DNA from: Alphaproteobacteria bacterium
GTDB taxonomy: Bacteria; Pseudomonadota; Alphaproteobacteria; UBA8317
Direction: 5' to 3'
DNA length: 20,509 bases
Assembly: GCA_038131935.1 (NCBI GenBank)
Contig: JAYPQH010000007.1
Location: 1 to 20,509, forward strand
Below, piece by piece: positions 1-20,085 of the stretch; positions within the stretch are counted from its first letter, which is position 1; each line of letters starts with the position of its first letter. The notes under the pieces are model-generated. The model saw nothing but the letters and a program-made list of their open reading frames with translations, was not told the origin of the DNA and did not search any database. Made by a program: the position numbers and the translations under genes.

Positions 1-2
1 AA

Positions 3-2345
3 GAAATTACAGATTGCCTGACAAAGATTGGTCTTGAGCTGGAAGAGATAGAAGACCCAGCTGATATCTTTCGTGGGTTCGTGGTGGGGCACGTGGTAGA
101 GGCCAGCCAGCATCCTGATGCTGATCGGTTGCGCGTGCTCAAAGTAGATGTAGGCCAGCCAACATTAAAAACAGTGGTTTGTGGTGCCCCAAATGCACAA
201 GCAGGACTGATTGGTATTCTGGCACAACCAGGATGTGTCATTCCAAGTACGGGTGCAGTGCTGGGTAAGGGAAAAATTCGGGGAATTGAATCTGAAGGAA
301 TGATGTGCTCTGGTCGTGAGCTGGGTTTAAGTGATGACCATGAAGGTATCATTGCCTTGGATCATGCCACCGCGGGCGCGGATGCTGCCCAAGCATTAGG
401 GCAAGTTGATCCTGTCATTGATATTGCAATTACCCCCAACCGTCCCGATGCGCTTGGGATTCGTGGAATAGCACGGGATCTCGCTGCAGCAGGACTTGGT
501 ACCTTGAAACCCCTACCAATGCCTGAGCTTCATCCAGATAACCAACAGGTTGTGGATCATGGTATTGACCTGGAGGAGGAGGCAGCGTGGCGTTGTCCGT
601 ACTTCATCGCGCGGCGTTTTTCTGATGTTAACAATCCGTCATCACCACAATGGCTGCAAACCAAGTTAAAATCTATTGGGTTAAGGCCTATTTCTACGCT
701 GGTCGATATCACCAATTATTTCACGATGACATTTGCACGACCACTGCATGTTTTTGATGCTGATAAACTAAAAGGGCGCTTGCATGTGCGTCTCGCACAA
801 GAAGGTGAGAGCTTGTTGGCACTCGATGAAAAAACCTATGTCTTGACTGCGGAGGACCTGGTCATTGCAGATGATCGTGGTCCGGTTGCGATTGCAGGGG
901 TTATGGGGGGCATGGAAACAGGCTGCTCTGAAGATACCAAAAATGTGATATTGGAGACGGCTTACTTCGACCCGGTTGGGGTTGCGCGAACAGGTCGGCG
1001 GCTAAATATCCTTTCAGATGCCCGCTTTCGCTTCGAAAGAGGAATTGATCCCGTCTTCACCAAGCAAGGTGATATGCTTGCCACCGCAATGATCCAGGAA
1101 TTATGTGGAGGTGTATATGGACCTGCAGCAAGCGCGGGTGATGCGCCTAAAGCTCCATCTCCTATTTCTTATTCACCTTCAATGCTCAAGCGTTTGACGG
1201 GTATGGATGTTGCGCATGAAGTCCAAAAAAAGCTTCTTGAAGATTTAGGCTTTGTGGTCGAGCAACAGGATATTTGGCAAATACAAAGGCCATCTTGGCG
1301 GCCTGATGTCCATGGCGCAGCTGATATTGTTGAAGAAATCACAAGGCTTATTGGCTTGGATGATTTGCCACTCACTCCCTTGCCAAATCTTCAAGCTTCC
1401 ATGAGGCCAGTTCTTACAGCCCGGCAAAGACGCCACAGGCTTTTACGTCATTGTGCGGCGGGACTTGGGCTGAGAGAAGCTGTGACATGGTCGTTTTTAA
1501 GGCAGGAAGAGGCAGAAATTTTTGGAGGTGGTAAAGCCAACATGCGGCTTGATAACCCTATTTCCAGTGAGCTGTCTGATATGAGGCCCTCTTTGGTTCC
1601 TAATCTTGTTCAAGCTTTGGTAAGAAACCATGATAGGGGTTTTAGAAATTTAGGATTGTTTGAATTAGGTCCGGTCTATCAATCTAGAGAGATTGAAGGA
1701 CAACGAGATTACCTTACAGCTGTTATGGTGGGTAACAAAGCTCCCGCTGTCTGGCATGCAGAGAGCAGACCCTTTGATGTTTTTGATGCAAAAGGCATGC
1801 TGTTTCACCTGCTCACACAGTTGGGTGTGCAGGTTCATAACCTTCTTCTTAAGCGAGAGGCCCCCGATACCTACCATCCTGGTCGTTACGGGGCATTATT
1901 TTTGGGGCCAAAGAATAAGATTGCCCAATTTGGTGAATTGCATCCAAAGGTGGCTGCAGATTTTGGCCTTAACCAACCTGTGGTTGTTTTTGAAATCGAT
2001 ATCGATGCGGTACCGTTTAAGAAAACCAAGGGAAAAGGCCGTCCACAGCCGGAATGGTTTGATTTGCAAGCCGTAGAGAAAGATTTGGCCTTTGTGGTCG
2101 ACGAACATATCGAGGCACAATCAGTTGTGCATGCTGCACGTGGTGCAAACAAAAAACTGATACATGATGTCCAGTTGTTTGACCTTTTCCGTGGAGGAGA
2201 TCTTCTCGAGGGGCAAAAATCCCTTGCAATACGTTTAACATTGCAGCCGTCGGAGAAGTCTCTCACAGATGCAGAGATCGCAGACATCATCCAGCAAGTT
2301 GCAAGCCAGGTGCAAAAAGCCACAGGCGGGGTCCTGCGCGGATGA
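3..2345 (+). CDS. pheT: Phenylalanine--tRNA ligase beta subunit (5'-truncated by the window edge)
   Basis: The frame is open from base 3 (EITDCLTKIGLELEEI...). Motifs: HPDADRLRV, VVCGAPN, IRGIESEGMMCS, ITPNRPDALG, RFERGID, PSWRPDV, and a C-terminal ferredoxin-fold anticodon-binding domain (DLAFVVD...LFDLFRG...KSLAIRL). Confidence 0.98.
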   Translation, partial: EITDCLTKIGLELEEIEDPADIFRGFVVGHVVEASQHPDADRLRVLKVDVGQPTLKTVVCGAPNAQAGLIGILAQPGCVIPSTGAVLGKGKIRGIESEGMMCSGRELGLSDDHEGIIALDHATAGADAAQALGQVDPVIDIAITPNRPDALGIRGIARDLAAAGLGTLKPLPMPELHPDNQQVVDHGIDLEEEAAWRCPYFIARRFSDVNNPSSPQWLQTKLKSIGLRPISTLVDITNYFTMTFARPLHVFDADKLKGRLHVRLAQEGESLLALDEKTYVLTAEDLVIADDRGPVAIAGVMGGMETGCSEDTKNVILETAYFDPVGVARTGRRLNILSDARFRFERGIDPVFTKQGDMLATAMIQELCGGVYGPAASAGDAPKAPSPISYSPSMLKRLTGMDVAHEVQKKLLEDLGFVVEQQDIWQIQRPSWRPDVHGAADIVEEITRLIGLDDLPLTPLPNLQASMRPVLTARQRRHRLLRHCAAGLGLREAVTWSFLRQEEAEIFGGGKANMRLDNPISSELSDMRPSLVPNLVQALVRNHDRGFRNLGLFELGPVYQSREIEGQRDYLTAVMVGNKAPAVWHAESRPFDVFDAKGMLFHLLTQLGVQVHNLLLKREAPDTYHPGRYGALFLGPKNKIAQFGELHPKVAADFGLNQPVVVFEIDIDAVPFKKTKGKGRPQPEWFDLQAVEKDLAFVVDEHIEAQSVVHAARGANKKLIHDVQLFDLFRGGDLLEGQKSLAIRLTLQPSEKSLTDAEIADIIQQVASQVQKATGGVLRG

Positions 2346-2415
2346 GGGGCATTGCGCTTCACGTGGGTGTGACTATATCTGAATGTTACTGGTCCGTTTG
2401 AGAGGTTGAAGTATC

Positions 2416-4218
2416 ATGGAAGAAGTATCACGCGTCAGAAATTTTTCGATTGTGGCGCATATCGACCATGGCAAGTCGACCTTGGCTGACCGCCTGATCC
2501 AATTATGTGGTGGGCTGAGTGAACGAGAAATGTCAAACCAAGTTCTCGATTCTATGGATATCGAGAAGGAACGTGGGATCACCATTAAGGCCCAGACCGT
2601 TCGGTTGCGCTATGAACATGATGACGGTGAGGTTTATTACCTAAATCTCATTGACACCCCGGGGCATGTTGATTTTGCCTATGAGGTCTCCCGTTCGCTC
2701 AAAGCTTGTGAGGGGTCCTTACTCGTGGTGGATGCGTCTCAAGGCGTGGAAGCTCAAACCCTTGCCAATGTCTATCAAGCGCTTGATCACAATCATGAAA
2801 TTGTTCCAGTCCTCAATAAAGTTGATCTACCCGCAGCAGAACCTGAGCGTGTTCGTGAGCAAATAGAGGATGTTATTGGCATCGATGCATCAGAGGCGGT
2901 TGAGATTTCTGCAAAAACGGGGTTGAACATCGATGCTGTGCTAAAAGCAATTGTAGAACGACTTCCAGCGCCAAAAACAGAAGGTGCAGACAAGCCTCTG
3001 AAAGCTTTGCTGGTTGATAGCTGGTATGATGAGTATTTGGGTGTTGTTGTTCTGTTCCGTATTTTTGACGGAGAACTCAAAAAAGGCGACCGAATTCGTT
3101 TTATGTCGAATAAGGTTAGCTACCCAGTTGATCGCGTTGGTGTGCTGACACCGAAAGGCTTAATGGTTGATAAATTGGGACCTGGAGATATTGGGTTTTT
3201 GACAGCCAGTATCAAGCAAGTTGCCGACACGCGCGTAGGTGATACCATTACCCTTGAGAAGCGCCCTTGCGATGCACCATTAGAGGGTTACAAGCCTGCA
3301 CAACCTGTTGTGTTCTGTGGCTTGTTTCCCGTTGATGCTTCCGATTTTGAGAGTTTGCGCGATGCTTTAGGAAAACTTCGTCTAAATGATGCAAGTTTTG
3401 AGTTTGAGATGGAAACCTCTGCAGCCCTTGGCTTTGGCTTCCGGTGTGGTTTTTTAGGACTGCTGCATTTGGAAATCATCCGTGAACGTCTTGAGCGTGA
3501 ATTCAGGCTTGATTTGATCACCACCGCGCCCTCTGTTATCTATCGCCTCACCATGACAGACGGTTCAGAGCAAGAATTGCATAATCCTGCTGATATGCCT
3601 GATGTCGTGAAAATTGATAGCATTGCCGAGCCTTGGATTACGGCAACAATTCTTGTCCCAGATGAATTCTTAGGTGCTGTATTAAAATTATGTGAAGACC
3701 GACGGGGGACCCAAACCAACCTAACATACGCGGGTAGTCGTGCCATGGTTGTCTATGACCTTCCTTTGAATGAAGTTGTGTTTGACTTTTATGACAAGCT
3801 TAAGTCAGCAACCCGTGGTTATGCGAGTTTTGATTATCAAATGAAGGGCTATGAAGTCGGGGATCTTGTTCGGATGTCTATTCTGGTAAATGCAGAGCCT
3901 GTAGATGCATTGGCCACCATCGTTCATCGTGCGCGTGCAGAAGACCGTGGTCGTGCGCTGTGTGAAAAACTTAAAGACCTAATCCCTCAGCATCTTTTCC
4001 AAATCCCTATACAAGCAGCACTTGGTGGGCGCATTATTGCGCGTGAAACCATAAGGGCGATGCGCAAAGATGTTACGGCCAAATGCTATGGCGGGGACGC
4101 ATCACGGAAACGAAAACTTCTTGATAAGCAGAAAGCAGGTAAGAAGAAAATGCGTCAGTTTGGGCGCGTGGAAATCCCACAAGAAGCGTTTATTGCGGCC
4201 TTACGCTCAGACGGCTAA
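2416..4218 (+). CDS. lepA: Elongation factor 4 (LepA GTPase)
   Basis: [63 protein letters not shown]; 600 aa. Confidence 0.99.
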
Positions 4219-4508
4219 AGCTGTCGCCTGTGCTTTTTGACGACCAGCGCCACAATTTCAACAAGCACGGCTATGATCAGGAGCAACATCCAAAAGGGCC
4301 GTTCCAACACGGGTTGAATAATGCTGCTCCACAGCCAGGGGTTTAAATGGCGTTCTATGGCTGGTTGCCAGATAGGGAAATGGTCAGGGAACAAAAAATA
4401 GAGATGGGCACCCAGTGGGGGAAGGTCTTGGATAAAAACATCAACGCCAAGAGATAGAAACCCTAAGGCGGCAATCAGCAGGGCCCCTGCGCGGACGTAG
4501 GATATCAC
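4215..4508 (-). CDS. Small hypothetical membrane protein (two predicted TM segments)
   Basis: Hydrophobic N- and C-terminal stretches flank [14 protein letters not shown]. The GTG start overlaps the msrA stop (GTGA), and the stop overlaps the lepA stop convergently. Confidence 0.7.
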
Positions 4509-5077
4509 AACTTTACCCCGGTTGGGGCGATGCCGCAGTACCCACGTGGGTTTTTTGCAAGATATTGTTGGTGGTAGGTTTCTGCCAAAATAAGAGGCCC
4601 CTCATCGAGGATGTCTGTTGTTATGGGCGGATACCCTTTTTGTTGGTACGCGTCATCGTAGGCAGCTCTTGCCTTCAAAGCTTCTTTGCGTTGCTGTTCC
4701 TGGGTGGGCATAATGGCTGATCTGTATTGGCTTCCTCTGTCGTTACCTTGTCTGTGTCCTTGGGTTGGATCATGATTTTCGAAGAAAATGCTTAGCAAAC
4801 TATCAAAAGATACAACATCTGGGTCGAAATTCACCAAGACAACCTCTGCATGCCCAGTGGTTCCTGTGCATACCAAATGATAATCTATATTTGTGGAGGT
4901 CCCGCCCGCATAGCCAACTGCTGTTGCCAATACACCTTTTGTTTGCCAAAAAATGCGTTCAGCCCCCCAAAAGCAACCCATGCCAAAAACCGCCATATCT
5001 TGATCTTCGTGCACAATCGATCCGGGTAAAATAAAATGAGGTGAGCTGGCTTTTTCCAGATGTTCAATGAGCGTCAT
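4505..5077 (-). CDS. msrA: Peptide methionine sulfoxide reductase MsrA
   Basis: GMGCFWGAE catalytic motif, GYAGG, TGHAEVV, HDPTQGHRQGNDRGSQYRSAI, AETYHQQYL, GYCG. The ATG at 5077 has GGAGA just upstream and is preferred over the ORF-track start at 5155, which lies inside the Pho box. Confidence 0.95.
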   Translation of the reverse strand: MTLIEHLEKASSPHFILPGSIVHEDQDMAVFGMGCFWGAERIFWQTKGVLATAVGYAGGTSTNIDYHLVCTGTTGHAEVVLVNFDPDVVSFDSLLSIFFENHDPTQGHRQGNDRGSQYRSAIMPTQEQQRKEALKARAAYDDAYQQKGYPPITTDILDEGPLILAETYHQQYLAKNPRGYCGIAPTGVKL

Positions 5078-5148
5078 GACGGTCTCCAAAACATGATTAC
5101 AGACCCCCCACACATAATCAGCTGTATGAGATGGAACAAGGTGCATGT

Positions 5149-5166
5149 CTGTCACAAAGTTGTCAC
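5149..5166 (+). promoter_or_regulatory. Putative Pho box (PhoB binding site)
   Basis: CTGTCAC-AAAG-TTGTCAC: two 7-mers with 11-bp periodicity matching the CTGTCAT-N4-CTGTCAY consensus, about 45 bp upstream of the sulfatase-family start. Confidence 0.7.
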
Positions 5167-5209
5167 AGCATCATGACAAAACATGAGTTTCTAAGATGGG
5201 GGAGCTTGG

Positions 5210-6751
5210 ATGCGGGTATTATTTTTGTCGGTTGACCAATGGCGTGGAGACTATTTTGGATTTATGGGACACCCTGTTATTCAAACGCCTAATATTGACG
5301 CCTTGGCGGAAGACAGCGCGCAGTTCCGTCGTCATTATGCCGTGGCAGCGCCTTGTGGCCCCTCTCGAACATCCATGCTAACAGGGCTGTACCCACAAGT
5401 GCATCGCTCTGTCTACAATGGGGCGCCGCTCGAGCAACGCTTTGAAAACATTGCGTCTTTGGTCCGGGACCATGGTGGTCATCCACAACTGATTGGCTAC
5501 ACCGATACATCTATTGATCCTGCAACAGTGGCAAAAGGAGATAAGAGATTACGCAGCTATGAAGGGGTGATGACAGGGTTTCATCAGTTGTATGATCATT
5601 CCGAAATGATGTTAGGGCTTTGGCGTCATCATTTGTCACAAGCCTCTGTTGAGGTGGGAGAGGGGTCTTTTCGTGACTTATATGCCCATCAGGAATATTC
5701 AGCGTCTGCTTTTCCCGATAGTCCTGCCAAATATGAAGCAGCCTACTCAGACACAGCATTTATCGCAGATCGGCTCATGGAGCATATAGATGTATTTGGT
5801 CAGGATGAACATATGTTTGTCCATGGGGTGTTTTTACGGCCACATCCACCCTTGGTGGCGCCTGAACCTTTTCATAGTATGTATGAAAACTTCGATATAA
5901 CACCAGCTCTTCCTCATCAAAACGATACAGATGAATTCGTTGCGGCATGGCTGAAATTTCAAACAACATCCCCTGAATATTATGATGCTGACATAGATAT
6001 GTCATCACTAACGGAAAAAGATGTCTGCGCAATGCGCCGTGTGTATTTGGGATTGGCGACAGAGGTTGACCATCATATTGGAAGGCTAATCAATCATCTC
6101 AAACAAAAAGGCCTTTATGATGAAACCTTGATTATCTTTACATCTGATCATGGTGAAATGTTGGGTGATTATGGGCTTTGGGGCAAAATGGGCTTTTTTG
6201 ATCCAGCTTTCCATATTCCCTTATTGGTCAAGCCACCTAAGAGCTTTCCTTGCATCCCTGGGCCACGCCATGGGTTCACGGAGAATGTTGATGTCATGGC
6301 GACGATAGCCGATTATCTTCAATTGCCTACATCTCCTGATGTGGCTGGTATCAGTTTGCGTCAGAATATTCATGACCCAGGGCAGCCGCTTCGTGATTAT
6401 GCAAGTTGGGCGTTCGATTATCGTTGCCAGGATGATCTCTTTTTTGAAAACGAACTCGGCCAGCCTTCTGAGGCTTGTTTGATGCATGTGTTCAAAACCG
6501 ACGCAGAAAAAGTAGTCATAAGGCCTGGTAAACCTCCTCTCTATCTCTCAGCAAATCCAGATGGATCAGAGTCTTATTGTGTACCATCTCAAGGTCATGA
6601 ACGACTGTTTCACACAAGCATCTCCCATCTATTGGTAAATTTTGAGAGGAAATATGCGAACATGAGGTTAAGTGCCGACGGCCCAGTGTCATTTTATACA
6701 AAGCGCGAGGCTTTGGTTGAGTTTTTAGGCCGTAACGTGAGAAATAGGTAG
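5210..6751 (+). CDS. Alkaline-phosphatase/sulfatase superfamily hydrolase, phosphonate monoester hydrolase (PMH/PehA)-like
   Basis: N-terminal VDQWRGD, formylglycine motif PCGPSRTSMLTG, LIGYTDT, LRPHPPLVAPEP, TSDHGEMLGD and WGK, all resembling rhizobial/Burkholderia PMH. Confidence 0.8.
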   Translation: MRVLFLSVDQWRGDYFGFMGHPVIQTPNIDALAEDSAQFRRHYAVAAPCGPSRTSMLTGLYPQVHRSVYNGAPLEQRFENIASLVRDHGGHPQLIGYTDTSIDPATVAKGDKRLRSYEGVMTGFHQLYDHSEMMLGLWRHHLSQASVEVGEGSFRDLYAHQEYSASAFPDSPAKYEAAYSDTAFIADRLMEHIDVFGQDEHMFVHGVFLRPHPPLVAPEPFHSMYENFDITPALPHQNDTDEFVAAWLKFQTTSPEYYDADIDMSSLTEKDVCAMRRVYLGLATEVDHHIGRLINHLKQKGLYDETLIIFTSDHGEMLGDYGLWGKMGFFDPAFHIPLLVKPPKSFPCIPGPRHGFTENVDVMATIADYLQLPTSPDVAGISLRQNIHDPGQPLRDYASWAFDYRCQDDLFFENELGQPSEACLMHVFKTDAEKVVIRPGKPPLYLSANPDGSESYCVPSQGHERLFHTSISHLLVNFERKYANMRLSADGPVSFYTKREALVEFLGRNVRNR

Positions 6752-6862
6752 GATTTGACAAAATTTCAAAAAATGTTTGGCGGTATGGGTGTGAAATCAT
6801 ACAAGATTTAGCGTTAGTTAACAAAAAATTTTGGCTTACGAAAAGCTGTTAAGGAGTTTGAA

Positions 6863-7696
6863 ATGGGTTGCATCCTTCAAATATCAGATTTGCATGTCCG
6901 TCCTAAAGATGTTCTTTGTTACGGAAAAGTGAACAGCAATAATATGTTGGAAAAGGCCATCTCATTTATCAATAAAATTCATATTCCTATTGATGCGATT
7001 GTGATCACTGGTGACGTAACTGATTGCGGTTTGGTGGAAGAATACCAAATGTTATCCAATCTTCTGATGAACCTCACCAAAGCACCTTATTTTCTATTGC
7101 CGGGAAATCATGATCGTCGAGAAAATTTGCGTGCCCAGTTTCCTCATCAACCATTCGCACAAGATATTGCGCCGTTTTTGCAATTTGACCAAACAGTTGC
7201 GGGTATCAGACTTATCGGTCTTGATAGTGTTGTTCCTGGTCACGAATATGGTGCGTTTGATGATGTGCGGTTGGCCTGGTTGCAAAAACGACTCGATGCA
7301 AATTCAGAAATTCCTACGATGATTTTTATGCATCATCCACCCTTTGATGGTGCTCAGAGGGCTGGAAAAAATCGGTTGAATTTATCGAGTGAGGCCTTGG
7401 AAAACTTATTACTTGGTTATCCAAATGTTGTTAGGGTATGCGCAGGACATTGGCATCGTAATGTTCAAACAAAATTTGCGCACGGCTTGGGCGTTGTTTG
7501 TCCATCAACCTGTCATCAGGTTGCATTCGATGTAGAACGTAGCTTGGGTGAGTTGATGTTTACGATGGAACCACCAGGTTTGTTGTTGCACATGATGGAT
7601 GAGGAAAAAGTGATATATACACATCAGTTGCCCATAGGTAATTTTGATGGTCCTCACCCCTATCCAGATGAACCCAATTACCCCGGTTCGGCATAA
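6863..7696 (+). CDS. Calcineurin-like metallophosphoesterase, GpdQ/CpdA family phosphodiesterase
   Basis: SDLH, TGDVTD, PGNHD, MHHPP, AGHWH and PSTCHQV motifs; SD AGGAG upstream. Confidence 0.9.
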   Translation: MGCILQISDLHVRPKDVLCYGKVNSNNMLEKAISFINKIHIPIDAIVITGDVTDCGLVEEYQMLSNLLMNLTKAPYFLLPGNHDRRENLRAQFPHQPFAQDIAPFLQFDQTVAGIRLIGLDSVVPGHEYGAFDDVRLAWLQKRLDANSEIPTMIFMHHPPFDGAQRAGKNRLNLSSEALENLLLGYPNVVRVCAGHWHRNVQTKFAHGLGVVCPSTCHQVAFDVERSLGELMFTMEPPGLLLHMMDEEKVIYTHQLPIGNFDGPHPYPDEPNYPGSA

Positions 7697-7751
7697 CCAA
7701 AAGTTGAGGGTTGGCAAAAAGATACAAAAGCCTTACATCCTCAAGTTTCGT

Positions 7752-7841
7752 GGACAGGTGGCCGAGTGGTCGAAGGCGCACGCCTGAAAGTGTGTATACG
7801 GTGATCCCGTATCGAGGGTTCGAATCCCTCCCTGTCCGCCA
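7752..7841 (+). tRNA. tRNA-Ser, GGA-type body, with one base missing in the anticodon loop as written
   Basis: Acceptor stem GGACAGG/CCTGTCC, D-arm TGGCCGAGTGGTCGAAGGCG, anticodon stem CACGC/GTGTG around CTGAAA (6 nt), long variable arm, T-arm GAGGGTTCGAATCCCTC, discriminator G plus encoded CCA. Confidence 0.92.
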
Positions 7842-7893: not shown

Positions 7894-7919
7894 TTAACCC
7901 CTACATTAACCCCTACATT
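7894..7919 (+). repeat. Perfect 12-bp tandem repeat, putative tyrosine-integrase arm-type sites
   Basis: TTAACCCCTACA occurs twice (7894-7905, 7906-7917) plus TT, about 50 bp past the tRNA 3' end after an AT-rich spacer. Confidence 0.65.
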
Positions 7920-8041: not shown

Positions 8042-8476
8042 ATGATTGATGATCTCATTGATGAAAAAGTGGTTAATGAATTTGATCGAGAACAGTTGGA
8101 AGATTTGAAAAGCCATATCGAAGGCCTTCTCGAGACTTATGGGTTTGGAGATGTTACGGGACTTACAAATCTAATCAGGGTTAGTCATCTACTACACCGA
8201 GATTTTAGAGATTTTCTAGCAGATGAAATAGATAAAATCCTTAAGGGTGAATTCAAGCCAGGTGAATCCAAGCCTCTTACAAAAGAACAATTACGAAAAC
8301 GCTATAGAAACCTAATGATTCATCATTACTATGAGTCGGAGCGAGGACATTTTTTTCCCGGTACAGGTAGTGGCCCCAAAGGGCGGCCAAGAGATGAAAT
8401 CATTCACGAGCTGATGGAAAAACATTCACTGGCCTACGAAACGATATATGATATTTTGAAGAAAAAAGAGGGGTAA
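8042..8476 (+). CDS. Hypothetical protein with a possible C-terminal HTH
   Basis: 144 aa with SD GAGG. The C-terminal RDEIIHELMEKHSLAYETIYDILKK has a helix-turn-helix-like pattern. It lies directly upstream of alpA. Confidence 0.6.
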   Translation: MIDDLIDEKVVNEFDREQLEDLKSHIEGLLETYGFGDVTGLTNLIRVSHLLHRDFRDFLADEIDKILKGEFKPGESKPLTKEQLRKRYRNLMIHHYYESERGHFFPGTGSGPKGRPRDEIIHELMEKHSLAYETIYDILKKKEG

Positions 8477-8556
8477 ATTTTATTTTTTTACCCATGAAGC
8501 GCATAATCTGAATCCTTAAATTCTTCCTAGATCCAACCAAAGACTAGGAGATATCA

Positions 8557-8754
8557 ATGGAAAACCCCATACGATTATTAAGACGTAATGAAGTTGAACA
8601 GATCACAGGGTTAGCTCGTAGTACCATCTATGCGTACATGCGGTCTGGCGACTTTCCACACCCTATTAGAATAGGCATTCGTGCCGTCGCATGGAAAAGT
8701 TGTGATGTTGAGGAATGGATAAACCATCGCGCTATCGCAGGTGAACAACCATGA
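8557..8754 (+). CDS. alpA: AlpA-family phage regulator / excisionase
   Basis: RLLRRNEVEQITGLARSTIYAYMRSGDFPHPIRIGIRAVAWKSCDVEEWI is a typical AlpA sequence; SD AGGAG. Confidence 0.95.
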   Translation: MENPIRLLRRNEVEQITGLARSTIYAYMRSGDFPHPIRIGIRAVAWKSCDVEEWINHRAIAGEQP

Positions 8755-9716
8755 CCAGCACAATCATCACAGAAGCTTTACGGAACAAGGCAAAAACTAA
8801 TGCAAAGGCGATCTGCCTAGATGTGCTAGGCAAGCCAAGTAGTGTAACTACTCATGAGCTCCGTTATGGCAATCGGGGATCGCTCTGTATCTGTGTTGCT
8901 GGGCCCAAGGCTGGCACCTACCACAACTTTGAGACAGGCAAAGGCGGTGATATGATTAGCCTGTTGTCAGACAAACTGGGCGGCATAGGCCAGGTTGTGA
9001 GATACCTAAGCGAAGATCACGGTGACACAGTTTCAACTTCTGCAACTGTGCATACAATACCCATGCCTAATCAACCAAAGGCTAAGCGTTGGTCCCATTA
9101 TGCACAACAGATCTTTGACGCATCAGTTCCGCTACAGAGAACGGCTGGTGAACATTATTTGGCACAGCGTGGTTTAGTGGATATTCCAGTAAGTGAAGAC
9201 ATTCGCTTTTTGGAAAGAAGCCCCTACCAAGCCTGCCCAGCTATTGTCTCACGGATTACTGATGCAAAAGTGCATAACGATTACATGAGCCTACATTTTA
9301 TATTCATGAAGGCCGATGGTTCAAAAGCGTTTCCCTTGCACAGAGGTAATAATAAACATCTGTTAGGTAATCATCAGACTCAAGGCGGTGTTATCAGAAC
9401 AACAGATGATACAGAGGTAGAATTAGGCCTGGGTGTGGCAGAAGGGCTGGAAGATGCGCTCTCAGCCATGATGATCTTTAAAACGCCTGTGTGGGCGGCT
9501 ATCAGCGCAGGAAACATCGCCAATCATCTACCAGCTATAAGTGGGATAGATACCTTATGTTTATTTGGTGATAATGACGATGCAGGCCATAAAGCGGTGC
9601 GTGCAGCCATAAAGAGACTAAGCAAAGATGGGTTAACTGTTAAACCTGCATTCCCACCCAAGTGCTACAAAGACTGGAATGATTATCTTATGGGGGATCA
9701 TCATGAACAGTCCTGA
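8751..9716 (+). CDS. Toprim-domain DNA primase (phage/plasmid type)
   Basis: N-terminal RYGNRGSL...G.YHNFETGKGGDMISL, YLAQRGL, Toprim VAEGLEDALS, GDNDDAG and KDWNDYL. ATGA overlap with alpA. Confidence 0.88.
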   Translation: MTSTIITEALRNKAKTNAKAICLDVLGKPSSVTTHELRYGNRGSLCICVAGPKAGTYHNFETGKGGDMISLLSDKLGGIGQVVRYLSEDHGDTVSTSATVHTIPMPNQPKAKRWSHYAQQIFDASVPLQRTAGEHYLAQRGLVDIPVSEDIRFLERSPYQACPAIVSRITDAKVHNDYMSLHFIFMKADGSKAFPLHRGNNKHLLGNHQTQGGVIRTTDDTEVELGLGVAEGLEDALSAMMIFKTPVWAAISAGNIANHLPAISGIDTLCLFGDNDDAGHKAVRAAIKRLSKDGLTVKPAFPPKCYKDWNDYLMGDHHEQS

Positions 9717-10864
9717 TTTGAATCAAGTCATTCAGACGTCTGAAGCAGACTTAAACGGAATTCCAGTGGATGAACACGGTAATATAGACCTCAAGCAGAT
9801 GAATGTCCTTAATGCGCGGGATTTACCGCCACGGATAGAGCCTGTGCCTTACATTGTGAAAGGAGTGCTTAACCAAAAAAGTATGGCGTATGTATATGCG
9901 CAGCCATCCACTGGCAAAACCTTCTTTACATTGGATTTGGCGTATCATGCTGCTGCAGGGCGTGTTTGGATGGGTAAGCGTGTAAATAGGACGAATGTAC
10001 TTTACTGCATTCAAGAGGGTGTGACGGGCTTTAAGAACAGAATGAAAGCCATCCAGGCGGAAAAGAACTTTGCTGATACAGATTTTTACTATCGGACAGA
10101 GCGTATCAATCTTATGAAGGATGCTGATACAAATGATATCATCAGGCAAGCCAGAGCTGTGCGAAACGGACGCCCTGTGCTGGTCATCATTGATACCCTG
10201 AGTCAGGCCCTTGCAGGCGAAGACGAGAACAGCAGTAAGCCTATGAGCAAGGTTGTTGGTGAATGTCAGCGTATCCAGCGTGAGGCAGAAGCAGCTGTGC
10301 TCCTTGTCCACCATACAGGCAAAGCTAAGGATAATAAGACAGTCAGAGGGCATTCAGCATTACGCGGGGGTACTGACACAGAGATCTTGTTGGAGCGCAC
10401 GAGTGAAAGCGAAGAAAATCTCATCGTTAAGGCGACAACAAAAAAAAGCAGCGTGATGGGCAAGAGGGGCGCTTTGTACATTCCAACTTGAGAAAGTGTA
10501 TATGGGGAATGATGCAGAGGGTGATCAAATTACGTCACGGATCATCAGGCAGGTAGAAGATACTTTTGACGGTGCGGGGTTTGCTGAAGTAGGCAAGGAT
10601 GAAGGGCCAGATTTTAAAAGTGATCATAAAAGAGCAATCTTCGAGTGCTTTCAGTTGCTCAGAAAGGAACTGGGTAAGAATGAGGTTCCTATTGAGCTGC
10701 TAAAGGAAGCGTATATCATTAAAAAGAAACCAACGAATGGCCGTCAGTTGTGGGCGCAAAATTTTAGAGAAATGCAAAATTCTCATTACCTTGCAGTTGT
10801 TGGAGCTAAGGACGTGAAAGAAGGAGATTGGCGTAAGTTTGCAAGCTTACGCTTAAGGGGCTGA
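9703..10864 (+). CDS. AAA_25 / RepA-like replicative helicase (one gene split by two frameshifts)
   Basis: Walker A AQPSTGKT, Walker B VIIDT, VHHTGK and RGHSAL. A shift in the A8 run at 10440-10447 restores KQRDG, and a second shift near 10494 joins ORF 10496..10864 (GNDAEGDQITS). The likely start is ATG 9703 with SD GGGGGA. Confidence 0.85.
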
Positions 10865-10893
10865 CACAGGAAAAAAACCAAGTCTATACAATG

Positions 10894-10946
10894 GTGTAAG
10901 TATGTAAGCGTAAGTACCCCCTTCTTTAGAAGGGGTACTACTTACA
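10894..10946. other. Putative replication origin: GTAAG iterons flanking a palindrome
   Basis: GTAAG occurs three times (gtGTAAG tatGTAAG cGTAAG), followed by TACCCCCTTCT-TT-AGAAGGGGTA and then inverted CTTAC, immediately after the helicase. Confidence 0.55.
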
Positions 10947-10999
10947 ACATGTTAGATGGCGCTTATTTATGCTTTGTGATGGCTATATAAAAGAGATAT

Positions 11000-11056
11000 G
11001 GGTCCTTCCACCATGTTCAACCGCGAGGTATTCGCAAGCGCGGCTTTCTCCTAGCG
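11000..11056 (+). other. Lambda-like cos-like packaging motif (cosQ/cosN-like)
   Basis: GGGTCCT (the lambda cosQ heptamer) at 11000-11006, then the dyad CCGCG-N13-CGCGG (11021-11043) followed by CTTTCTCCTAG, resembling lambda's CGCGGGTTTTCGCTA. Confidence 0.5.
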
Positions 11057-11070
11057 GTAGGATTACCTAT

Positions 11071-11210
11071 GAGTGGTCTGTTGGCTGGCAAAATACTGAA
11101 CTTGGTAAGCTCGTGAAAATAGGGTTCGTAGAAAGCTTCCATGGGTAAACACTTAGACGAATGCCTAGACAAAGCCCTTTTTTATATCACTCAGGCATGT
11201 CCTGTATAAA
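11071..11210 (+). pseudogene. Decayed IS3-family transposase C-terminal (integrase core) fragment
   Basis: Translates as VGWQNTELGKLVKIGFVESFHG/KHLDECLDKALF, resembling the IS3 consensus WHYIxPGKPxQNGFVESFNGRLRDECLNxxLF. Confidence 0.65.
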
Positions 11211-11323
11211 GGCTTGCCATTCAACAATCAGGCTTCTTCCAAACGAAGGCCTTTATGTTTGAGTGAGGGATGTTTGCTCTCTGGTCAGAGCTATTAGGTT
11301 TAATACAAAAAATTAAGTGCAGA

Positions 11324-11806
11324 TCAATCGATATCTATCGTCACAATTTCACCATTATCAAATACTACCTCGTCACAATTCTTACCATTCCCACCCCGAT
11401 CAATGATAACAAATTGTTGAGGCTTTATGACCAATAATGGGTGGTGCCAGACATTGCTGTGATAATTTACACCCTGTTTGCCGGTCGCCCAGAATGTACA
11501 CAGACTGATTCTGGTTTGGGCTCATTTCAATAACCACAAGCCAACGCATATTATCGATTGGATAAAAAGCTTGGTTACCTAAAGGATGCTTTCGAGCATC
11601 CCAATTTGAGCGGACGAGGCCTGCTTAGGAAAATGCTAAATTGCGCTTTTAGCATTTTCGCCACCTAGTTGGATATCAATGAGATTATGAACTCGGGTTG
11701 TGTATCCTGAATTAATCTCAAACTGCTCTGCCCCCTCGACTTGAATCACGTCCCCGAAAGGTGCAAACGCTTTTCTTGTTAACGCTTCAGGCTTAATTAT
11801 GCGCAT
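11324..11806 (-). CDS. allA: Ureidoglycolate lyase (frameshifted as written; absent from the ORF track)
   Basis: Manual translation gives MRIIKPEALTRKAFAPFGDVI...INSGYTTRVH, HPLGNQAFYP, QGVNYHSNVWHHPLL, FVIIDRGGNGKNCDE. The ATG overlaps the allantoicase stop (TGATG), the stop is at 11324-11326, and there are several indels between about 11500 and 11650. Confidence 0.88.
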
Positions 11807-12792
11807 CAGATCGACGTCCCAAAAATGCGAAGGCGTGAGATTCCACCATCTGGATAGGCGTTTAGTTTCACATGTGTCACCGGATCCTGAGAGGACACTT
11901 TGTAGGTATGTACGGAGTCGGCAGTCAGCGCTCGGTATGTCAACACCTCATCCCAAAACATCGCTTGGGTGACAATTGCATCCTTTCCTAGATTTGGCAT
12001 TTGAGCAGCCTGCAGAGAGCAGCCCTCCGGAAAATTACCCTTGAAGTGCGCAGTGTCGATTTCTATGCGTTCTATTATTCCAGGAATCCCCAGTTTCACA
12101 ATAATCCACTCGTTGCCTGGAACACGGCGACGGGCGGTTTCCCAACCATCGCCCATATTCAAACCACGACCTGGAGTCAGAATAACTTCTGGATTTCCAT
12201 AGTGCGCATCCGAGTAGGCGACGACTTTTCCACCAAGCTTGAGAGCAGATAACTCAAGTTGAGCTCCCTGCATAACCTCGTCAGCAACTGGCTGCCCATA
12301 TACTTTGAGCCTTGCAACCCCACCATCAGGATAAATGTTTAAACGAATCCAGCGAATTGGTTGATCGTGAGATTTTGCATTAAAAAAATAATGAGAATTC
12401 CCCTGAAGACTGACTTCATCTAACAAGTCAATCCAATGTTCGTCAGATGGTCGACCGACACTCGATGATCCTTGAATCGATGCACCTGGCGGATAGTTAC
12501 CTGTGAAATGTGCCGTATTGATATCAAAACCAGCGATCATTCCAGGGACTGCCAATTGAATCAGACACCAATCAAATCCCCCACTCCGGCGACGACGGGA
12601 TTCCCAACCATCCATGTATTGACCATTGGCATCAAAACGACCTTTATGGAACTCAGGCTCTGAATCAGAGAGCAACCTCTGTTTATCAGCAAAGAAATCA
12701 TCGCTGCAATCGACGGCAATTGCACCAAGCTTCGCGCTCGCGAGATTCACAGCGCTCAACGCGAACCTCGGTAGATTTGATTCAACACTCAT
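11806..12792 (-). CDS. alc: Allantoicase
   Basis: Two-fold internal repeat: SDDFFA...DGWESRRRR...TAHFTGNYP...NIYPDGGVARL and SDAHYG...GDGWETARRR...DTAHFKGNFP...YPDGGISRLR. Confidence 0.96.
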   Translation of the reverse strand: MSVESNLPRFALSAVNLASAKLGAIAVDCSDDFFADKQRLLSDSEPEFHKGRFDANGQYMDGWESRRRRSGGFDWCLIQLAVPGMIAGFDINTAHFTGNYPPGASIQGSSSVGRPSDEHWIDLLDEVSLQGNSHYFFNAKSHDQPIRWIRLNIYPDGGVARLKVYGQPVADEVMQGAQLELSALKLGGKVVAYSDAHYGNPEVILTPGRGLNMGDGWETARRRVPGNEWIIVKLGIPGIIERIEIDTAHFKGNFPEGCSLQAAQMPNLGKDAIVTQAMFWDEVLTYRALTADSVHTYKVSSQDPVTHVKLNAYPDGGISRLRIFGTSI

Positions 12793-14567: not shown

Positions 14568-14600
14568 TGAAACATAGGCCAATGTACATAGGTGTAACGA

Positions 14601-15147
14601 ATGCCCAGTACTACCCATCATGAAAACGCGCCAATTGCGCTAACTGCAATAAGGCTTAGCCGCGGACTTAATTGGTTTGTTGAGCGTCTCTGTGTTGCGC
14701 TACTGGTTATCCTTGTTTTGGATGTTTGGCTGGGTATCATGGCGCGCTACATTCTTCCTTGGCAGTTAACGTTCACAGAAGAACTGGCTCGTTATCTAAT
14801 GATCTGGGTGGCGCTGATTGCTGTTTCCTCCCGGAATCGCACACCGTGAGCATGTTGGCGTACTCATCATCTTCGAGCGCTTTCCTACCCTGACGCGGAA
14901 AATGGCTTACGCAGTCTTGTTTGATCTAATCGCATTAGTCTTCTTTGGAGTCATTTTGATCTATGGTATCGGAATGGTTGAGCGAGGCTTTAGTCGCTAC
15001 ACCATGATCAATGAGATCCCAAAAGCTTGGCCTTTTATGGGCGTTCCGATTGCAGCAGGTCTCGCTTGCATACAACTGATAATGGTAAGCGTCCATGACT
15101 TATTTGCCACGGACGTTTACGTTGCTAACTCGCAGATGGGGAGCTGA
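14601..15147 (+). CDS. dctQ: TRAP transporter small permease DctQ (one frameshift near 14830)
   Basis: IMARYIL...FTEELARYLMIW, followed in another frame by GIAHREHVGV and further TM helices. Confidence 0.88.
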
Positions 15148-15150
15148 AAT

Positions 15151-16429
15151 ATGTTTCTCGTTGCAATTACTTTCTTTGGTTTAATGGCGATTGGCATGCC
15201 AGTAGGTATTGTTATGGGTGTTGCGGGTATGGTGGGTATCTGGGACATGGGACCTAATTTTTGAAGATGGTCCCAGACCGTTTATTTGCTGGACTTGACC
15301 TCTTTCCCTTCTTTATGATGCCCTTCTTTATCCTTGCGGGTGAGGTAATGAATAAGTCTGGCATTACCGCAAATCTGGTAAGGTTCGCTGATGCGCTGGT
15401 CGGCTGGTTGCGTGGTGGGATGGCATGATTCCAACATGTTGGCATCTGTCATGTTTGCTGGAATCACAGGCGCAGCGACGGCGGATGCCGCGGCTTTCGG
15501 GAACACGCTTGTCCCGGCGATGGTGAAAAAGGGTACTCGCGCCCCTTCTGCCTGCGCGGTTACAGCAGCAGGCTCGATTATTAACCCACCATCCCACCCT
15601 CGACACTCGCTGTGATCTACGGATCGATTATGGGCGTCTCGATTGCTGGACTGTTTGCTGCGGGTATTCTGCCTGGGTTGCTGATATGTATCGTTTGTAT
15701 GGCGCTTATCGCCATCTTCGGCAAGCGCTGGAATCTGCCTAAAGGCGACACGCGTCCGAGCCTGATGGGTATCATTGCTGCGTTTCGTATGAGTATTCCT
15801 CGCTTTGATACTTCCAGTGTTTATTCCTCGGGTCAATACTCGGTGGCTTTGGTAACTCCAACGGAAGCAGCTTCCGTTGCGCTGGCGTACTCGCTGTTTA
15901 TCGCTGTGGTTGTTTATCGGTCAATTACCTGGAGTGACCTGTTTCATATGATGGTGCGCACTGCTCGCATCACTGGAGTAATCTTTTTGATTATCGCATC
16001 TGCTTCGATACTTGGCTGGTGGGATGACGTTTAATCAAACCTACAAGCAATTGCTGGCGATTTCTCTCGATCTCATCAAATCCTCAAGTGATCATTGGTC
16101 TAATCCTGATCTTACTGCTGTTCATCGGCTTGTTCATGGATATCAATGCCACCCTGATCATCCTTGCACCGGTACTGGCACCATTGACACTCAAGATTGG
16201 AATGGACCCGGTACATGCTGGAATCATGATCATTCTGGCACTTAATATCTCGTTAATGACGCCGCCTGTTGGCGCCTGCCTATTTGTTCTCGCCTCAGTA
16301 ACCCAAGAAAAAGTAGAGAACATTACGAAGAGTCTTTGGCCATTCCTGTTAGCAGAGCTTCTTGTACTAATTCTGATCGCATTCTGGCCAGACTTAACAC
16401 TCGCTATTCCGCGAATGTTTGGCATGTAA
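15151..16429 (+). CDS. dctM: TRAP transporter large permease DctM (multiple frameshifts)
   Basis: MPFFILAGEVMN, FAGITGAATADAAA, SIAGLFAAGILPGLL, TPTEAASV, GMDPVHAG and TPPVG are distributed across frames. Confidence 0.9.
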
Positions 16430-16473
16430 ACCTTAAACCCGCAAACCCCCCAAATACGATAGGAGATTCCCAA

Positions 16474-17508
16474 ATGACTATTTTCCATTCGATCAAAACT
16501 TTCGCCATCAGCGGTGTTGCAGCAGCAGCAATCTCGTTCCCAACAATGGCAGCTGATGTGACCATGCGATTGGCTCACCTGAATCCAGCTGACCCGTTTG
16601 TAAGTCACTCTGGAGCTATGACTGCCGTTTTCAAATCATTGGTTGAAACTGCCAGTGGCGGCTCCATCGAAGTTAAGCTTTTCCCGGACGGTCAGTTGGG
16701 AAAGGACAACGAGGTAATTCAGCAAGTTCGCGATGGACTCGTGCAATCAACAATTTCTTCCGCGGGGGTATTGCACAGCACTATCCTCTTGTAGGCGTAT
16801 TTGATATTCCTTTCGCTTTTCCCAACATAGCGGTATCCAATCGTGTGATAGATCTTCACAGTGACTTCGGTAAGAAGTTTGCTAGCGGTCTTGAGTCAGA
16901 AACTGGTCTGAAGGTTATGGGCCTATTGGATAGCGGTGGTTTCTTTGCGTTTACCAACTCAAAAAAGCCGATCACCAGCGTAGCGGATATGGACGGCCTT
17001 CGTATTCGTACAATGACGCTCCCTACCCACCAAGCGATGGTCAACTCACTGGGTGGTCAAGCTACTCCACTGCCTTGGCAGAGGTTTATACTGCACTTCA
17101 GACAGGTGTAGCAGATGGACAGATGAACCCTATTCCAATCATCGCTTTCGCAAAATTTGATGAGGTTCAGAAATACCTTCAATTACCAACCATGTGATAA
17201 CGCCTTACGTCTGACAATGAACAAAGAATTCTATGACAGCCTGACCCCAGAACAGCAGTATATTGTTGATTGGGCTGCTGAGGTTGCAGTTGAAACAGGT
17301 CGGGTATGTCTCGCGTAATCGAAGCTTCAGAGAACGGTTTACCAAAGCTCGCTGAAAAGATGGAAGTAAATGCATCCCCTGCAGAATTAGCTAAGTTTTT
17401 GCTGAAGTCGCACAGCCTGCTGTGTGTGCTCTAATTGAAGAGAAGTACGGTGAGGCGGGTATCGATATGCTCAATTCTATGCTGGCTGAAATAAAGAAAG
17501 CGATGTAA
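16474..17508 (+). CDS. dctP: TRAP substrate-binding protein DctP (multiple frameshifts)
   Basis: SD AGGAG, signal peptide MTIFHSIKTFAISGVAAAAISFPTMAA, LFPDGQLG, FDIPFAF, DMDGLRIRTM, GVADGQMNP, FDEVQKY. Confidence 0.9.
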
Positions 17509-17525
17509 TTTAGTGAAGAACTGCG

Positions 17526-17547
17526 GCGGGAGATGCCTTTCTCCCGC
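17526..17547 (+). other. Intercistronic hairpin after dctP
   Basis: 8-bp stem GCGGGAGA-tgcctt-TCTCCCGC with no U-tract; more likely an mRNA-stabilising or attenuating hairpin than a full terminator. Confidence 0.5.
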
Positions 17548-17582
17548 TCTCAAACACCCCGTTAACACCATTAGATGTTGGC

Positions 17583-18824
17583 ATGAAACAACTTTACCCC
17601 TACTTCCAACTAGATATACCCGTTGATTACGCGGTAAATCCATCGGCCGCATTTGAATCAATTGGCGCTGACAATGCCTTGAGCGTTGTGTCAGACAAAG
17701 CTAGAGAGGAAGCGTTCTTAGAAATTTGCTCGTGGAAAGGCTATGAGCCCACACCATTAAGGAGCCTTGGTGGACTAGCAGCTGCCTTAGACGTAACAAG
17801 CGTTGCCTATAAAGACGAGGCCTCACGGTTCGGATTAGGAAGCTTTAAAGCACTCGGTGGTGCCTATGCCGTTATGCAAGTTCTTAAAGAGCAGATCGCC
17901 AATCATTTTCCTGATATGAACATCAGTTTGTCAGATATACGAAATCATAAATTTGCAGAGCAGGTCGCAAAAGAGACAGTATGCTCTGCAACAGATGGCA
18001 ATCATGGACGTGCAGTCGCTTGGGGTGCGCAGCGTTTTGGCTGTCGTTGCGTAATATATGTGCACGAACGCGTTAGCCAAGGTCGTATTGATGCGATAGC
18101 TGCTTATGGCGCTGAGGTTCGTGTTGTAAAAGGCAACTACGACGATGCAGTTCGTGAAGCAGCCCGAGTTTCAGAAGCCGAGGGCTGGATAGTCGTTTCA
18201 GACACCTCCTACGAAGGTTGTGTAACCATTCCCCGCAATGTGCTAACTGATACACTGTGATGGTGACCGAGGCAATTAGTCAACATGAAGCTTTCTATGG
18301 CCGCCCTCCTACCCATGTCTTCGTGCAAGGAGGAGTAGGTGCATTAGCGGGTGCAGTGGCATCCACACTCTGGGATTACTACGGTGTTCAGCGGCCGATT
18401 TGTTGTGTTGTGGAACCCGACAAAGCAGCCTGTATGATGAAAACTGTTCGCCAAGGCAGTCCCGCCGTTGTAACTGGTGATCTGGATACCCTAATGGCTG
18501 GACTGGCTTTAGGTGAAGTCTCTCTAATCGCCTGGGACATACTGGAAAAGGCAGCAGACCACTTTATGGCAATTACGGATCAGTCTGCCGTTGAATGCAT
18601 GCGCTTATCTAGCTAATTCCCCGGTAATCCACCAATTGTGGGAGGTGAGTGCCGTCGCTGGTTTGGCTGATGTATACTCGCTTGTGCTGATGAAAATCTT
18701 GTAAAAGTACTGAAACTAACGTCCTGTAGCCGTATTCTTGTTTTTGGCACTGAGGGTGCAACTGATCCAGAGCTATACGCCGAACTCGTAGGTCGCCCTG
18801 CTTCTTGAGGTTTGTCCTGAATGA
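17583..18824 (+). CDS. dpaL: Diaminopropionate ammonia-lyase (PLP, fold type II; frameshifted, end approximate)
   Basis: YEPTPL, YKDEASRFGLGSFKALGGAYAV (PLP lysine), ATDGNHGRAVAWGA, VSDTSYEG, PTHVFVQGGVGALAG, MAGL and C-terminal VFGTEGATDPELY. Confidence 0.92.
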
Positions 18825-20085
18825 GCCAACAAACAATACTAAAAATAAATGGCGACCGTCTGGTCGACCGATTGAAATGCCTAGGTCAAGTTGGTTCTCT
18901 CGATGGTGGCGGTGTTAGTCGTTTGGCACTGACAACTGCGGATAGAGAAGGTCGGGACTTGGTTGTGAGTTGGATGGAACAGTTAGGCATGACTGTCAGC
19001 ATCGATCAAATAGGAAAACATTATTGCGACACGCCAAGGTGCAGATCAAAACGCTGCACCTGTCATGACTGGATCACATATCGATACCGTCAGAACTGGT
19101 GGCCTCTATGATGGCAACCTAGGAGTACTTGCAGGACTCGAGGTTGTGGAATGTTTAAACGAGCTTGATATTAAAACGCGTCACCCCATTGCTGTCGCTG
19201 TGTTTACCAATGAGGAGGGCGCACGCTTCTCTCCAGATATGATGGGTAGCCTCGTTTATGTTGGCGGAATGCCGCTGGCTGAGGCCCTAGATACTGTAGG
19301 AATAGATGGTAAAACTGTACGAGAGTGTCTGAATGAAATTGGCTATGCAGGAACAAGCAAGATCTCGACGCCAAGCGTACACGCATTTCTGGAACTGCAT
19401 ATAGAACAGGGCCCGGTTCTGGACGAAGAGCAGGTACAGATTGGCGTTGTCGAGGAGGTACAAGGATCTCTTTGACCGAGTATACCTTTGAAGGCGTGTC
19501 CAACCACGCGGGTACTACACCCTAACGATGCGGTTGCGAAAAAGATGCTGGGTTTGCTTATGTCCGTTGCCAACCATGTTAGAGAGCTGGCGATTAAAAT
19601 GGGTGGAAATCAGGTAGGGACAGTAGGTTTTATCGAAATTAAACCTAACCTGGTGAATGTTGTCCCTAACTTCGCACGCATTACAGTGGATCTTCGAAAT
19701 ACTGACGAAAAACTGCTGCAACTGGCAGAATCGAAGTCTAACCGATTTCATCGATTCTATCTGTTCAAAAGAAAAGCTAAAAGTAAGCAGTAAAAACCTC
19801 GCCCGTTTTGAGCCAGTCACTTTGAACCCCTCTGGTTGATCGGGTTGAGCAAACTGCGAAGTCTTTCGGATACTTCAATGCGAATTCCATCGGGGCTGGG
19901 CATGACGCACAAAATGCTCGCCGTGTATCTGCTCCTTCGGCTATGATTTTTGTTCCCTCCAAAAAGGGATCAGTCACAACATCAAAGAATTTACAGCACC
20001 AGAGGATTTGTGTCGGGGGGCAGATATTCTGGCTGAGTCTGATGCTGGATCTTGCTATTCAGGAGAGAGGAGCGATGTGCTATGA
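18821..20085 (+). CDS. M20-family Zn amidohydrolase (N-carbamoyl-L-amino-acid hydrolase / allantoate amidohydrolase / beta-ureidopropionase type; frameshifted, end approximate)
   Basis: GGVSRLALT, GSHIDTV..GGLYDGNLGV, NEEGARF, ELHIEQGPVL, SNHAGT, NVVP, GAGHDAQ and MIFVPS across several frames. Confidence 0.9.

Follow-up and report, generated by a model that had tools for sequence, protein, structure and literature searches.

Does a lambda-like cos motif in bacterial DNA that holds no terminase gene mark an island that was packaged by another phage, a phage that has lost its packaging genes, or nothing at all? The question is raised by a 20,509-nt stretch of alphaproteobacterial DNA (the window), in which GGGTCCT at 11000–11006 is followed, 32 nt later (11007–11038), by CGCGGCTTTCTCCTAG at 11039–11054. 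A direct read of the sequence confirmed every string, coordinate and dyad given in a sequence-only reading of the window. That reading's statement that no terminase gene lies beside the motif also held, as no terminase family was found among the window's 27 ORFs and a tblastn search of the window with 14 proteins of related loci (terS, terL, capsid and protease, with terS and terL taken from five elements) returned nothing below E 0.1.

The island at the tRNA-Ser gene

The motif lies in non-coding DNA between a small island and a gene of the bacterial host. The features of the island and of the DNA on both sides are as follows.

3–2345: pheT (Pfam/Rfam/ARAGORN map)
2416–4218: lepA
4505–5155, minus strand: msrA
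5210–6751: sulfatase
6863–7696: phosphoesterase
7752–7841, plus strand: tRNA-Ser-like gene, left border of the island (cmscan 50.1 bits, one consensus position missing)
8042–8476, plus strand: ORF144, all-helical, without a family, at the left end of the island
8557–8754, plus strand: AlpA-family regulator/excisionase (PF05930, 2e-21; phrog_2790)
8751–9716, plus strand: Toprim/DUF7146 primase (PF13362, 1.2e-17; phrog_510 DNA primase, 2.4e-30)
9679–10864, plus strand: RepA-type (AAA_25) helicase, in pieces 9679–10491 and 10496–10864 (PF13481, 1.5e-37)
10865–11326: non-coding DNA holding the motif, with about 270 nt after it
10897–10945, no strand assigned: three GTAAG(T/C) direct repeats and a strong hairpin (fold z −3.0 on the plus strand, −4.2 on the minus strand)
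11327–11806, minus strand: allA (ureidoglycolate lyase) pseudogene, host DNA and right bound of the island (PF04115; 5.1e-11, 5.6e-4 and 1.3e-16)
11806–12792, minus strand: allantoicase

Bounded by the tRNA gene and the end of allA, the island is approximately 3.4 kb in length and consists of ORF144 and the AlpA, primase and helicase genes. Proteins that are at least 90% identical to these four recur on other contigs. Phage structural and lysis genes are absent from the island (Pfam, PHROG and tblastn), and Pfam finds no integrase family among the 27 ORFs of the window. The 3′ part of the tRNA gene, sought as an att repeat, does not recur in 10865–11700, where the best match is 8 nt, a length equalled by 91% of random segments. 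No rpp- or terS-like gene adjoins the cos-like site, and no ORF next to it after the motif has a family.

In the tRNA-Ser-like gene, the anticodon loop is 6 nt long (CUGAAA). ARAGORN reports the gene as ‘tRNA-???’, and it is 82–85% identical to E. coli tRNA-Ser; it was the sole match when E. coli genomes were searched with the window DNA. The junction of the island may fall within the anticodon loop; alternatively, the tRNA gene may have been inactivated. Just after it, at the left edge of the island, an exact tandem 12-mer, TTAACCCCTACA in two copies (7894–7917; repeat family D15), may be a binding site for a recombinase or a regulator.

ORF144 belongs to no Pfam, PHROG or NCBIfam family, and a search of 1.84 billion representative proteins yielded a single relative, P0172, at 43% identity. 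Its structural model (pLDDT 70.6) gave no Foldseek match at E ≤ 0.001, the Mor protein of Mu appearing at a TMt of 0.47 and E 1.7; an Atlas search returned unnamed clusters and a Mor match at a TM of 0.44, and the best hit of a sequence search of the PDB was at E 0.066. We treat the predicted likeness to Mor activators as a lead only. We also considered ORF144 as an analogue of Rpp or TerS and dropped the idea, as it matched no winged helix-turn-helix, Rpp or TerS structure.

Compared with P0002, a 95%-identical protein of 386 amino acids that spans both pieces, the helicase gene has two homopolymer length changes near 10440–10470, one in a run of A and one in a run of G, which split it in two. 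These breaks could reflect real decay or an assembly error. The second piece (ORF122, 10496–10864) was considered as a separate gene and rejected: it matched only itself and encodes the C-terminus of the helicase. The repeats and hairpin at 10897–10945, which lie after the helicase stop and before the cos-like site, are a candidate origin or terminator; the sole Rfam match of the hairpin (10900–10949) is a sub-threshold one of the miRNA type.

To the right of the motif, where an insertion sequence (IS) remnant had been proposed, the DNA is instead the frameshifted ureidoglycolate lyase gene, split over three frames that cover positions 1–53, 75–99 and 108–158 of the 162 of PF04115. The 14 stop-to-stop ORFs after the motif (searched at E ≤ 10) include no transposase family and match only PF04115 at E ≤ 0.001; a Spermine_synth match at E 0.0085 falls below the cut-off of that family. 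The spacer and motif DNA of the window has no match in a collection of 72,556 plasmids. We found neither an IS nor another deletion scar, and no evidence for the IS-mediated deletion that had been offered to explain the orphan motif. Further right, in 14600–20509, genes for DctQ, DctM, DctP, a PALP enzyme and an M20 peptidase are present as fragments, and the genes at 1–7700 are intact. Together with the split allA, this suggests that the ureide/TRAP-transporter region is decaying locally.

Relatives of the motif and their packaging genes

In the lambda sequence that we fetched, the right end (...ACGGGTCCTTTCCGGTGATCCGACAGGTTACG) and the left end (GGGCGGCGACCTCGCGGGTTTTCGCTAT...) join so that GGGTCCT is followed by 35 nt, which include the 12-nt cohesive end GGGCGGCGACCT, and then by CGCGGGTTTTCGCTA; the layout given for lambda in the sequence-only reading was therefore right. 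GGGTCCT and the block after it are the experimentally defined cosQ and cosN of lambda, as described in PMC9026076.

A profile of RepA homologues (A1) was searched against the genome contigs of 185,579 species genomes and yielded 270 confirmed relatives of the helicase, of which the best 80, all at 42% identity or less, were kept. Among these best 80, 11 loci (L011, L013, L016, L019, L020, L021, L022, L023, L024, L027 and L036) carry 12 sites, two of them in L022, that form a family: GGGTCCTTCC (block 1), about 14 nt (14–17), then CGCGGGTAATTCGCACCCCG or a block of the CGGG...CCCG type (block 2). All 12 sites lie on the strand of the helicase, 77–850 nt after the RepA-helicase homologue; all start with GGGTCCTT, and 10 of the 12 start with GGGTCCTTCC. 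In seven sites from six loci (L013, L016, L020, L022 with two, L024 and L027), block 1 is followed after about 14 nt by (A)C(G/A)(C/G)GGGTAATTCGCACCCCG, and the remaining sites have a CGGG-N9-CCCG-type block, as alignments A2 and A3 show. Run against the 80 loci at E ≤ 0.05, a profile made from 11 of the sites recovers only those sites and L023, a duplicate of L021. The pattern GGGTCCT-N25–40-CGCGG, taken from the sequence-only reading, was tried as a signature of the family and discarded, as it occurs in 1 of 82 loci and there on the wrong strand.

Several of these loci also have packaging genes. In L011, L021, L023 and L036, the motif precedes a gpA-type large terminase gene (PF05876, PF20454) by 547–719 nt, with a Nu1-like or small helix-turn-helix gene between the two and a lambda-family portal gene after them (Pfam on flanking ORFs, and tblastn). 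With pP18_f, a 40.6-kb plasmid of Phaeobacter piscinae, included, the motif stands 91–123 nt before the first packaging gene and 547–780 nt before the gpA-type terL. A fifth locus with a gpA-type terL, L009, has only a by-eye variant of the motif, which the profile does not match.

The motif also occurs outside the helicase loci. A search of the plasmid collection with the motif of L013 matched six records, two of which we examined. In pP18_f, the motif is in the gap before genes for a DUF1441 protein, a ‘terminase gpA endonuclease subunit’, a portal and a ClpP-like protease. In a 49.3-kb Salmonella plasmid (CP053324.1; L084/L085), GGGTCCTTCC...GCGGGTCATTCGAACCCG lies between ParB/methyltransferase-type genes and a gpA-type terL, which is followed by genes for a lambda-family portal, ClpP protease and capsid E; the upstream genes are not helicases. 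The two plasmids, from Phaeobacter and Salmonella, share block 1 letter for letter, whereas the E. coli lambda-like prophages read GGGTCCTTTCC there. These occurrences indicate that the motif travels with gpA terminases and not with the helicase. The Salmonella record is unannotated, and its terL is read as two ORFs (4588–5025 and 5022–5774) and then continues across the record start. In the same plasmid collection, pP18_f (L083, NZ_CP010721.1) and two P. inhibens plasmids of about 41 kb are typed as non-mobilisable.

The lambda-like junctions of two E. coli prophages align with the family in register, so that the cosN of lambda falls over block 2 (A3). On the basis of this alignment and of the published definitions of cosQ, cosN and cosB (PMC6092414, PMC9026076), we interpret the family as lambda-type cos sites. 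Because they carry a gpA terminase, a portal and a head protease behind such a site, pP18_f and the P. inhibens plasmids are phage-plasmids and candidate helpers. The phage collection contained no phage that matches the window or the cos-family motif. One further candidate, H45, considered as a possible cos of a phage-inducible chromosomal island (PICI), was rejected because it belongs to an ordinary lambdoid prophage whose terS is different.

The window site can be divided as follows.

10999–11039, plus strand: extent of the match to the cos-family profile (nhmmer, 11 family members, window left out)
11000–11009, plus strand: cosQ-like block GGGTCCTTCC, 7/7 against lambda GGGTCCT and 10/10 against the alphaproteobacterial and Salmonella family
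11021–11043, no strand assigned: dyad of CCGCG (11021–11025), AGGTATTCGCAAG (11026–11038) and CGCGG (11039–11043), specific to the window
11022–11036, plus strand: cosN-like block CGCGAGGTATTCGCA, aligned with family CGCGGGTAATTCGCA and the cohesive-end region of lambda

The match to the 11-member profile is the best in the window (8.4 bits, E 0.048; the runner-up has E 0.68), yet every true family member scores 21.2–50.2 bits. A 9-member profile aligns block 1 only (7.5 bits, E 0.082), a score equalled in 9 of 300 Markov-random windows. Block 2 scores 10 in a local comparison with the 9-member consensus (p ~0.002), as do 37 of 20,000 composition-matched random 41-mers and 118 of the 40,936 41-mers of the window. 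The two blocks are 12 nt apart in the window and 14–15 nt apart in the closest family members, and the right dyad arm of the family, ACCCC, is replaced (A3). In the second half of the site, the comparatively relevant part is CGCGAGGTATTCGCA, whereas CGCGGCTTTCTCCTAG, which the sequence-only reading had matched to lambda, is not conserved in the family. Similarity of the cosB type beyond block 2 looked suggestive by eye in alignment A2 and was set aside, as neither the long 5-member profile (110 nt beyond block 1) nor a first long model matched at the window site. Folding of the dyad region gave no significant structure (z −1.1 and −1.4), and an Rfam scan found no structured-RNA family at the site.

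Sensitive blastn of 10865–11330 against the 80 related loci gave a best E of 1.2 and nothing at the expected places; in the phage collection, 10865–11805 had no match at E ≤ 1 and 10985–11075 gave only chance matches of 18–23 nt. In position, the site conforms to the family, being 136 nt 3′ of the helicase stop and on the expected strand. We conclude that it descends from a cos of this family and has drifted. The likeness to pre-terS regions that had been suggested as a check was found in this form: the motif resembles the cos that precedes terS in alphaproteobacterial gpA-terminase prophages.

Readings of the window site

The reading that we favour, with a probability of roughly 0.55, is that the site is a genuine but diverged lambda-type cos, comprising the cosQ block and the left part of cosN, and that it belongs to a helper-dependent, satellite-type island at tRNA-Ser that is now probably a relic. 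A signal of this kind would be one that is cut by gpA/Nu1-type terminases. Because the island has a cos signal at its end and no packaging genes, it probably once travelled in the particles of another phage. By analogy with lambda and the PICIs of E. coli, induction of a helper phage that resides in the same cell and encodes a gpA-type terminase would be accompanied by replication of the island; the TerS/TerL complex of the helper would recognise the island cos and nick it within approximately 11022–11040, where alignment with lambda would place the nick region; and concatemers of the island would be packaged into helper capsids. The frameshifted helicase, the lack of an integrase or att repeat and the drifted right half of cosN suggest that this copy is probably a relic.

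The main alternative is that the island is what remains of something larger: a gpA-terminase prophage that was self-sufficient, or a capsid-encoding element such as L013 or L020. A deletion just after cos would then have removed terS and terL or the head genes, together with the integrase and attR. We consider this unlikely, although it would account for several features of the locus. The order primase–helicase, cos, terS, terL, portal is found in L011, L021, L023 and L036, and helicase, cos and then capsid or protease genes in L013, L020, L022, L024 and L027, such that a cut no more than 270 nt after cos would produce the layout of the window. Decay is evident nearby, in the allA pseudogene and in the many split genes of 14.6–20.5 kb, and attR was not found. 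However, tblastn detects no vestige of terS, terL, capsid or protease genes in the window, the deletion would have left no scar that we could find, and the prophages have fused primase–helicases of 630–790 amino acids with no adjoining AlpA. In the window, AlpA is accompanied by a Toprim primase encoded in its own gene and by a RepA of 386 amino acids, which is the layout of satellite-type islands; for this reason, and with PICIs and the virion-encapsidated elements (VEIMEs) of the ocean as parallels, we favour the satellite reading. An AlpA gene and a primase/helicase module without structural genes are described as hallmarks of satellites (PMC6092414, PMC9618062). The same layout of AlpA, Toprim primase and RepA occurs in six of the related loci (L010, L040, L058, L062, L070 and L082), none of which carries the motif; this counts against the satellite reading, as do the lack of an rpp- or terS-like gene beside the site and of an integrase or att.

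The resemblance to cos could also be fortuitous, a GC-rich 10-mer and a small palindrome that happen to lie in a non-coding spacer. GGGTCCT alone occurs three times in the window against 1.71 expected (three or more in 26 of 100 shuffles), the profile scores are marginal, the long profile has no match and the site was picked after a scan of 20 kb for many types of motif. Against this, the exact 10-mer GGGTCCTTCC is expected only ~4e-4 times on one strand of the 460-nt spacer (our own arithmetic, which assumes uniform bases), block 2 adds its p of ~0.002, and the site has the same strand and side relative to the helicase as the 12 sites of the family motif have relative to homologues of that helicase. 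Once position after the helicase and strand are taken into account, the site is more than chance, yet a weak member of the family, and we hold a coincidence to be very unlikely.

That the motif instead serves the helicase module as an origin of replication or as a site bound by a regulator, with no part in packaging, seems highly improbable. It does follow the helicase in all 11 loci, which were themselves found through the helicase gene, and in such islands the replication gene is often followed directly by the origin, at which place L070 and L062 have iteron-like repeats, but its helicase-independent occurrences, before a gpA terminase with no preceding AAA_25 helicase in Salmonella L084/L085, Phaeobacter pP18_f and lambda-like prophages, argue against such a role, as do the experimental assignment of its lambda counterpart (PMC9026076) and the better origin candidate at 10897–10945.

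Terminase-less carriers and known packaging systems

The window site led us to a wider set of cos-bearing, terminase-less elements. Seven loci (L013, L016, L019, L020, L022, L024 and L027) encode a stand-alone RepA of about 390 amino acids, a ClpP-like protease and a Phage_capsid_4 capsid protein and carry the cos site, with 83–85% identity to the cos of the Phaeobacter phage-plasmids. The 94 + 63 ORFs scanned in them include no terminase or portal family; L013 is a whole contig of 9,287 nt, L027 covers 9,276 of 9,611 nt, and the other five were examined within 7-kb flanks. By their gene content, these loci look like helper-dependent elements. They are of Rhodobacterales type and may represent an undescribed kind of capsid-encoding, terminase-less satellite. 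With these loci and the E. coli PICIs as parallels, the proposal that a helper phage acts in trans on the window island is plausible.

How close is the window site to systems in which packaging is understood? As in lambda cos, a GGGTCCT(T) block comes first, a G-rich candidate for the nick region follows it on the same strand, in register and about 16–20 nt further on, and relatives of the motif precede a Nu1-like terS and a gpA-type terL. Unlike in lambda, the 12-nt cohesive end is absent, R-type or IHF sites are not recognisable, the nu1 and A genes do not follow, and the spacing between GGGTCCT and the second string is 3 nt shorter (32 versus 35 nt, counted between the strings that the sequence-only reading chose). 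Laboratory cosmids share with the island a replicon and a cos without packaging genes; they differ in being artificial and in carrying a complete lambda cos. The alphaproteobacterial gpA-terminase prophages and phage-plasmids (Paracoccus yeei L011, Stappia L021/L023, Cohaesibacter L036 and Phaeobacter piscinae pP18_f) share an identical block 1 and the position of the motif relative to the replication module. In these, by contrast, terS, terL, portal and other genes follow, and the profile score is 21–50 bits, compared with 8.4 for the window. We know of no experimental mapping of the ends of any of these prophages or phage-plasmids.

To our knowledge, the borrowing of a cos by terminase-less islands has so far been shown experimentally only for a few islands of E. 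coli, Pasteurella and Staphylococcus. The PICIs of E. coli are described as terminase-less islands with alpA, a primase and helper-type cosQ and cosN that are packaged by lambda or phi80 (PMC6092414, PMC9026076). Those reported there (EcCICFT073 and PICI-A, -B, -C and -G, with the lambda or phi80 terminase as helper, through Rpp) resemble the window island in the absence of a terminase and in the presence of alpA, a primase/replicase module, a cosQ block and a candidate cosN. According to these accounts, however, the cosQ and cosN of PICIs are near-identical to those of the helper and rpp comes directly after cos, whereas the cosN-like block of the window has diverged and no gene follows its cos-like site. 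The window island also differs from PICIs in having no integrase or att, and its host is an uncultured marine alphaproteobacterium, to judge by the names attached in the sources to proteins that share at least 90% identity with those of neighbouring genes; one such name, that of the allantoicase cluster, points to Gammaproteobacteria.

Marine VEIMEs range from less than 5 to 16.8 kb, encode AlpA and primase/helicases, and count Alphaproteobacteria among their hosts; about 20% have no integrase, and their concatemers are packaged in full-size capsids (PMC9618062). The window island is likewise a small AlpA/primase–helicase element; VEIMEs have been seen in ocean virions. The word ‘cos’ does not occur in the main text of PMC9618062, which describes no such packaging signal.

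On a bolder reading, which we regard as speculative and quite unlikely, the island would be complete rather than decayed: a minimal ‘natural cosmid’, that is, an integrase-less satellite of approximately 3.4 kb with AlpA and ORF144 as regulators, a primase–helicase replicon with its origin, and a cos. Its cosN would have shifted to the dyad CCGCG-N13-CGCGG to match a marine helper with a gpA terminase, and it would be packaged, as VEIMEs are, as long concatemers. Such an island would belong to a wider, undescribed set of cos-bearing, terminase-less marine alphaproteobacterial elements that includes the capsid-plus-protease elements L013 and L027 of ~9.3–9.6 kb.

If the favoured reading of a diverged satellite cos is true, conservation of the cosQ–cosN signal known from lambda extends to marine Alphaproteobacteria, where terminase-less islands borrow it. 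Block 1 with its nick block would then be a short, searchable DNA marker that could pair marine satellites with gpA-terminase helpers and pick out relics of satellites from which the integrase has gone. It also flags Rhodobacterales elements that have a capsid gene, a protease gene and a cos without a terminase; Phaeobacter phage-plasmids share this cos.

Two of the terminase-less loci have further features of their own. L013 also encodes a Rep_3 initiator. L022 has two cos-like sites, at 8479 and 8608, 129 nt apart, and in this it is like EcCICFT073, which has two cos copies; the two sites of L022 differ downstream, with TTAAC-type repeats after one and a GGTA...TACC hairpin after the other.
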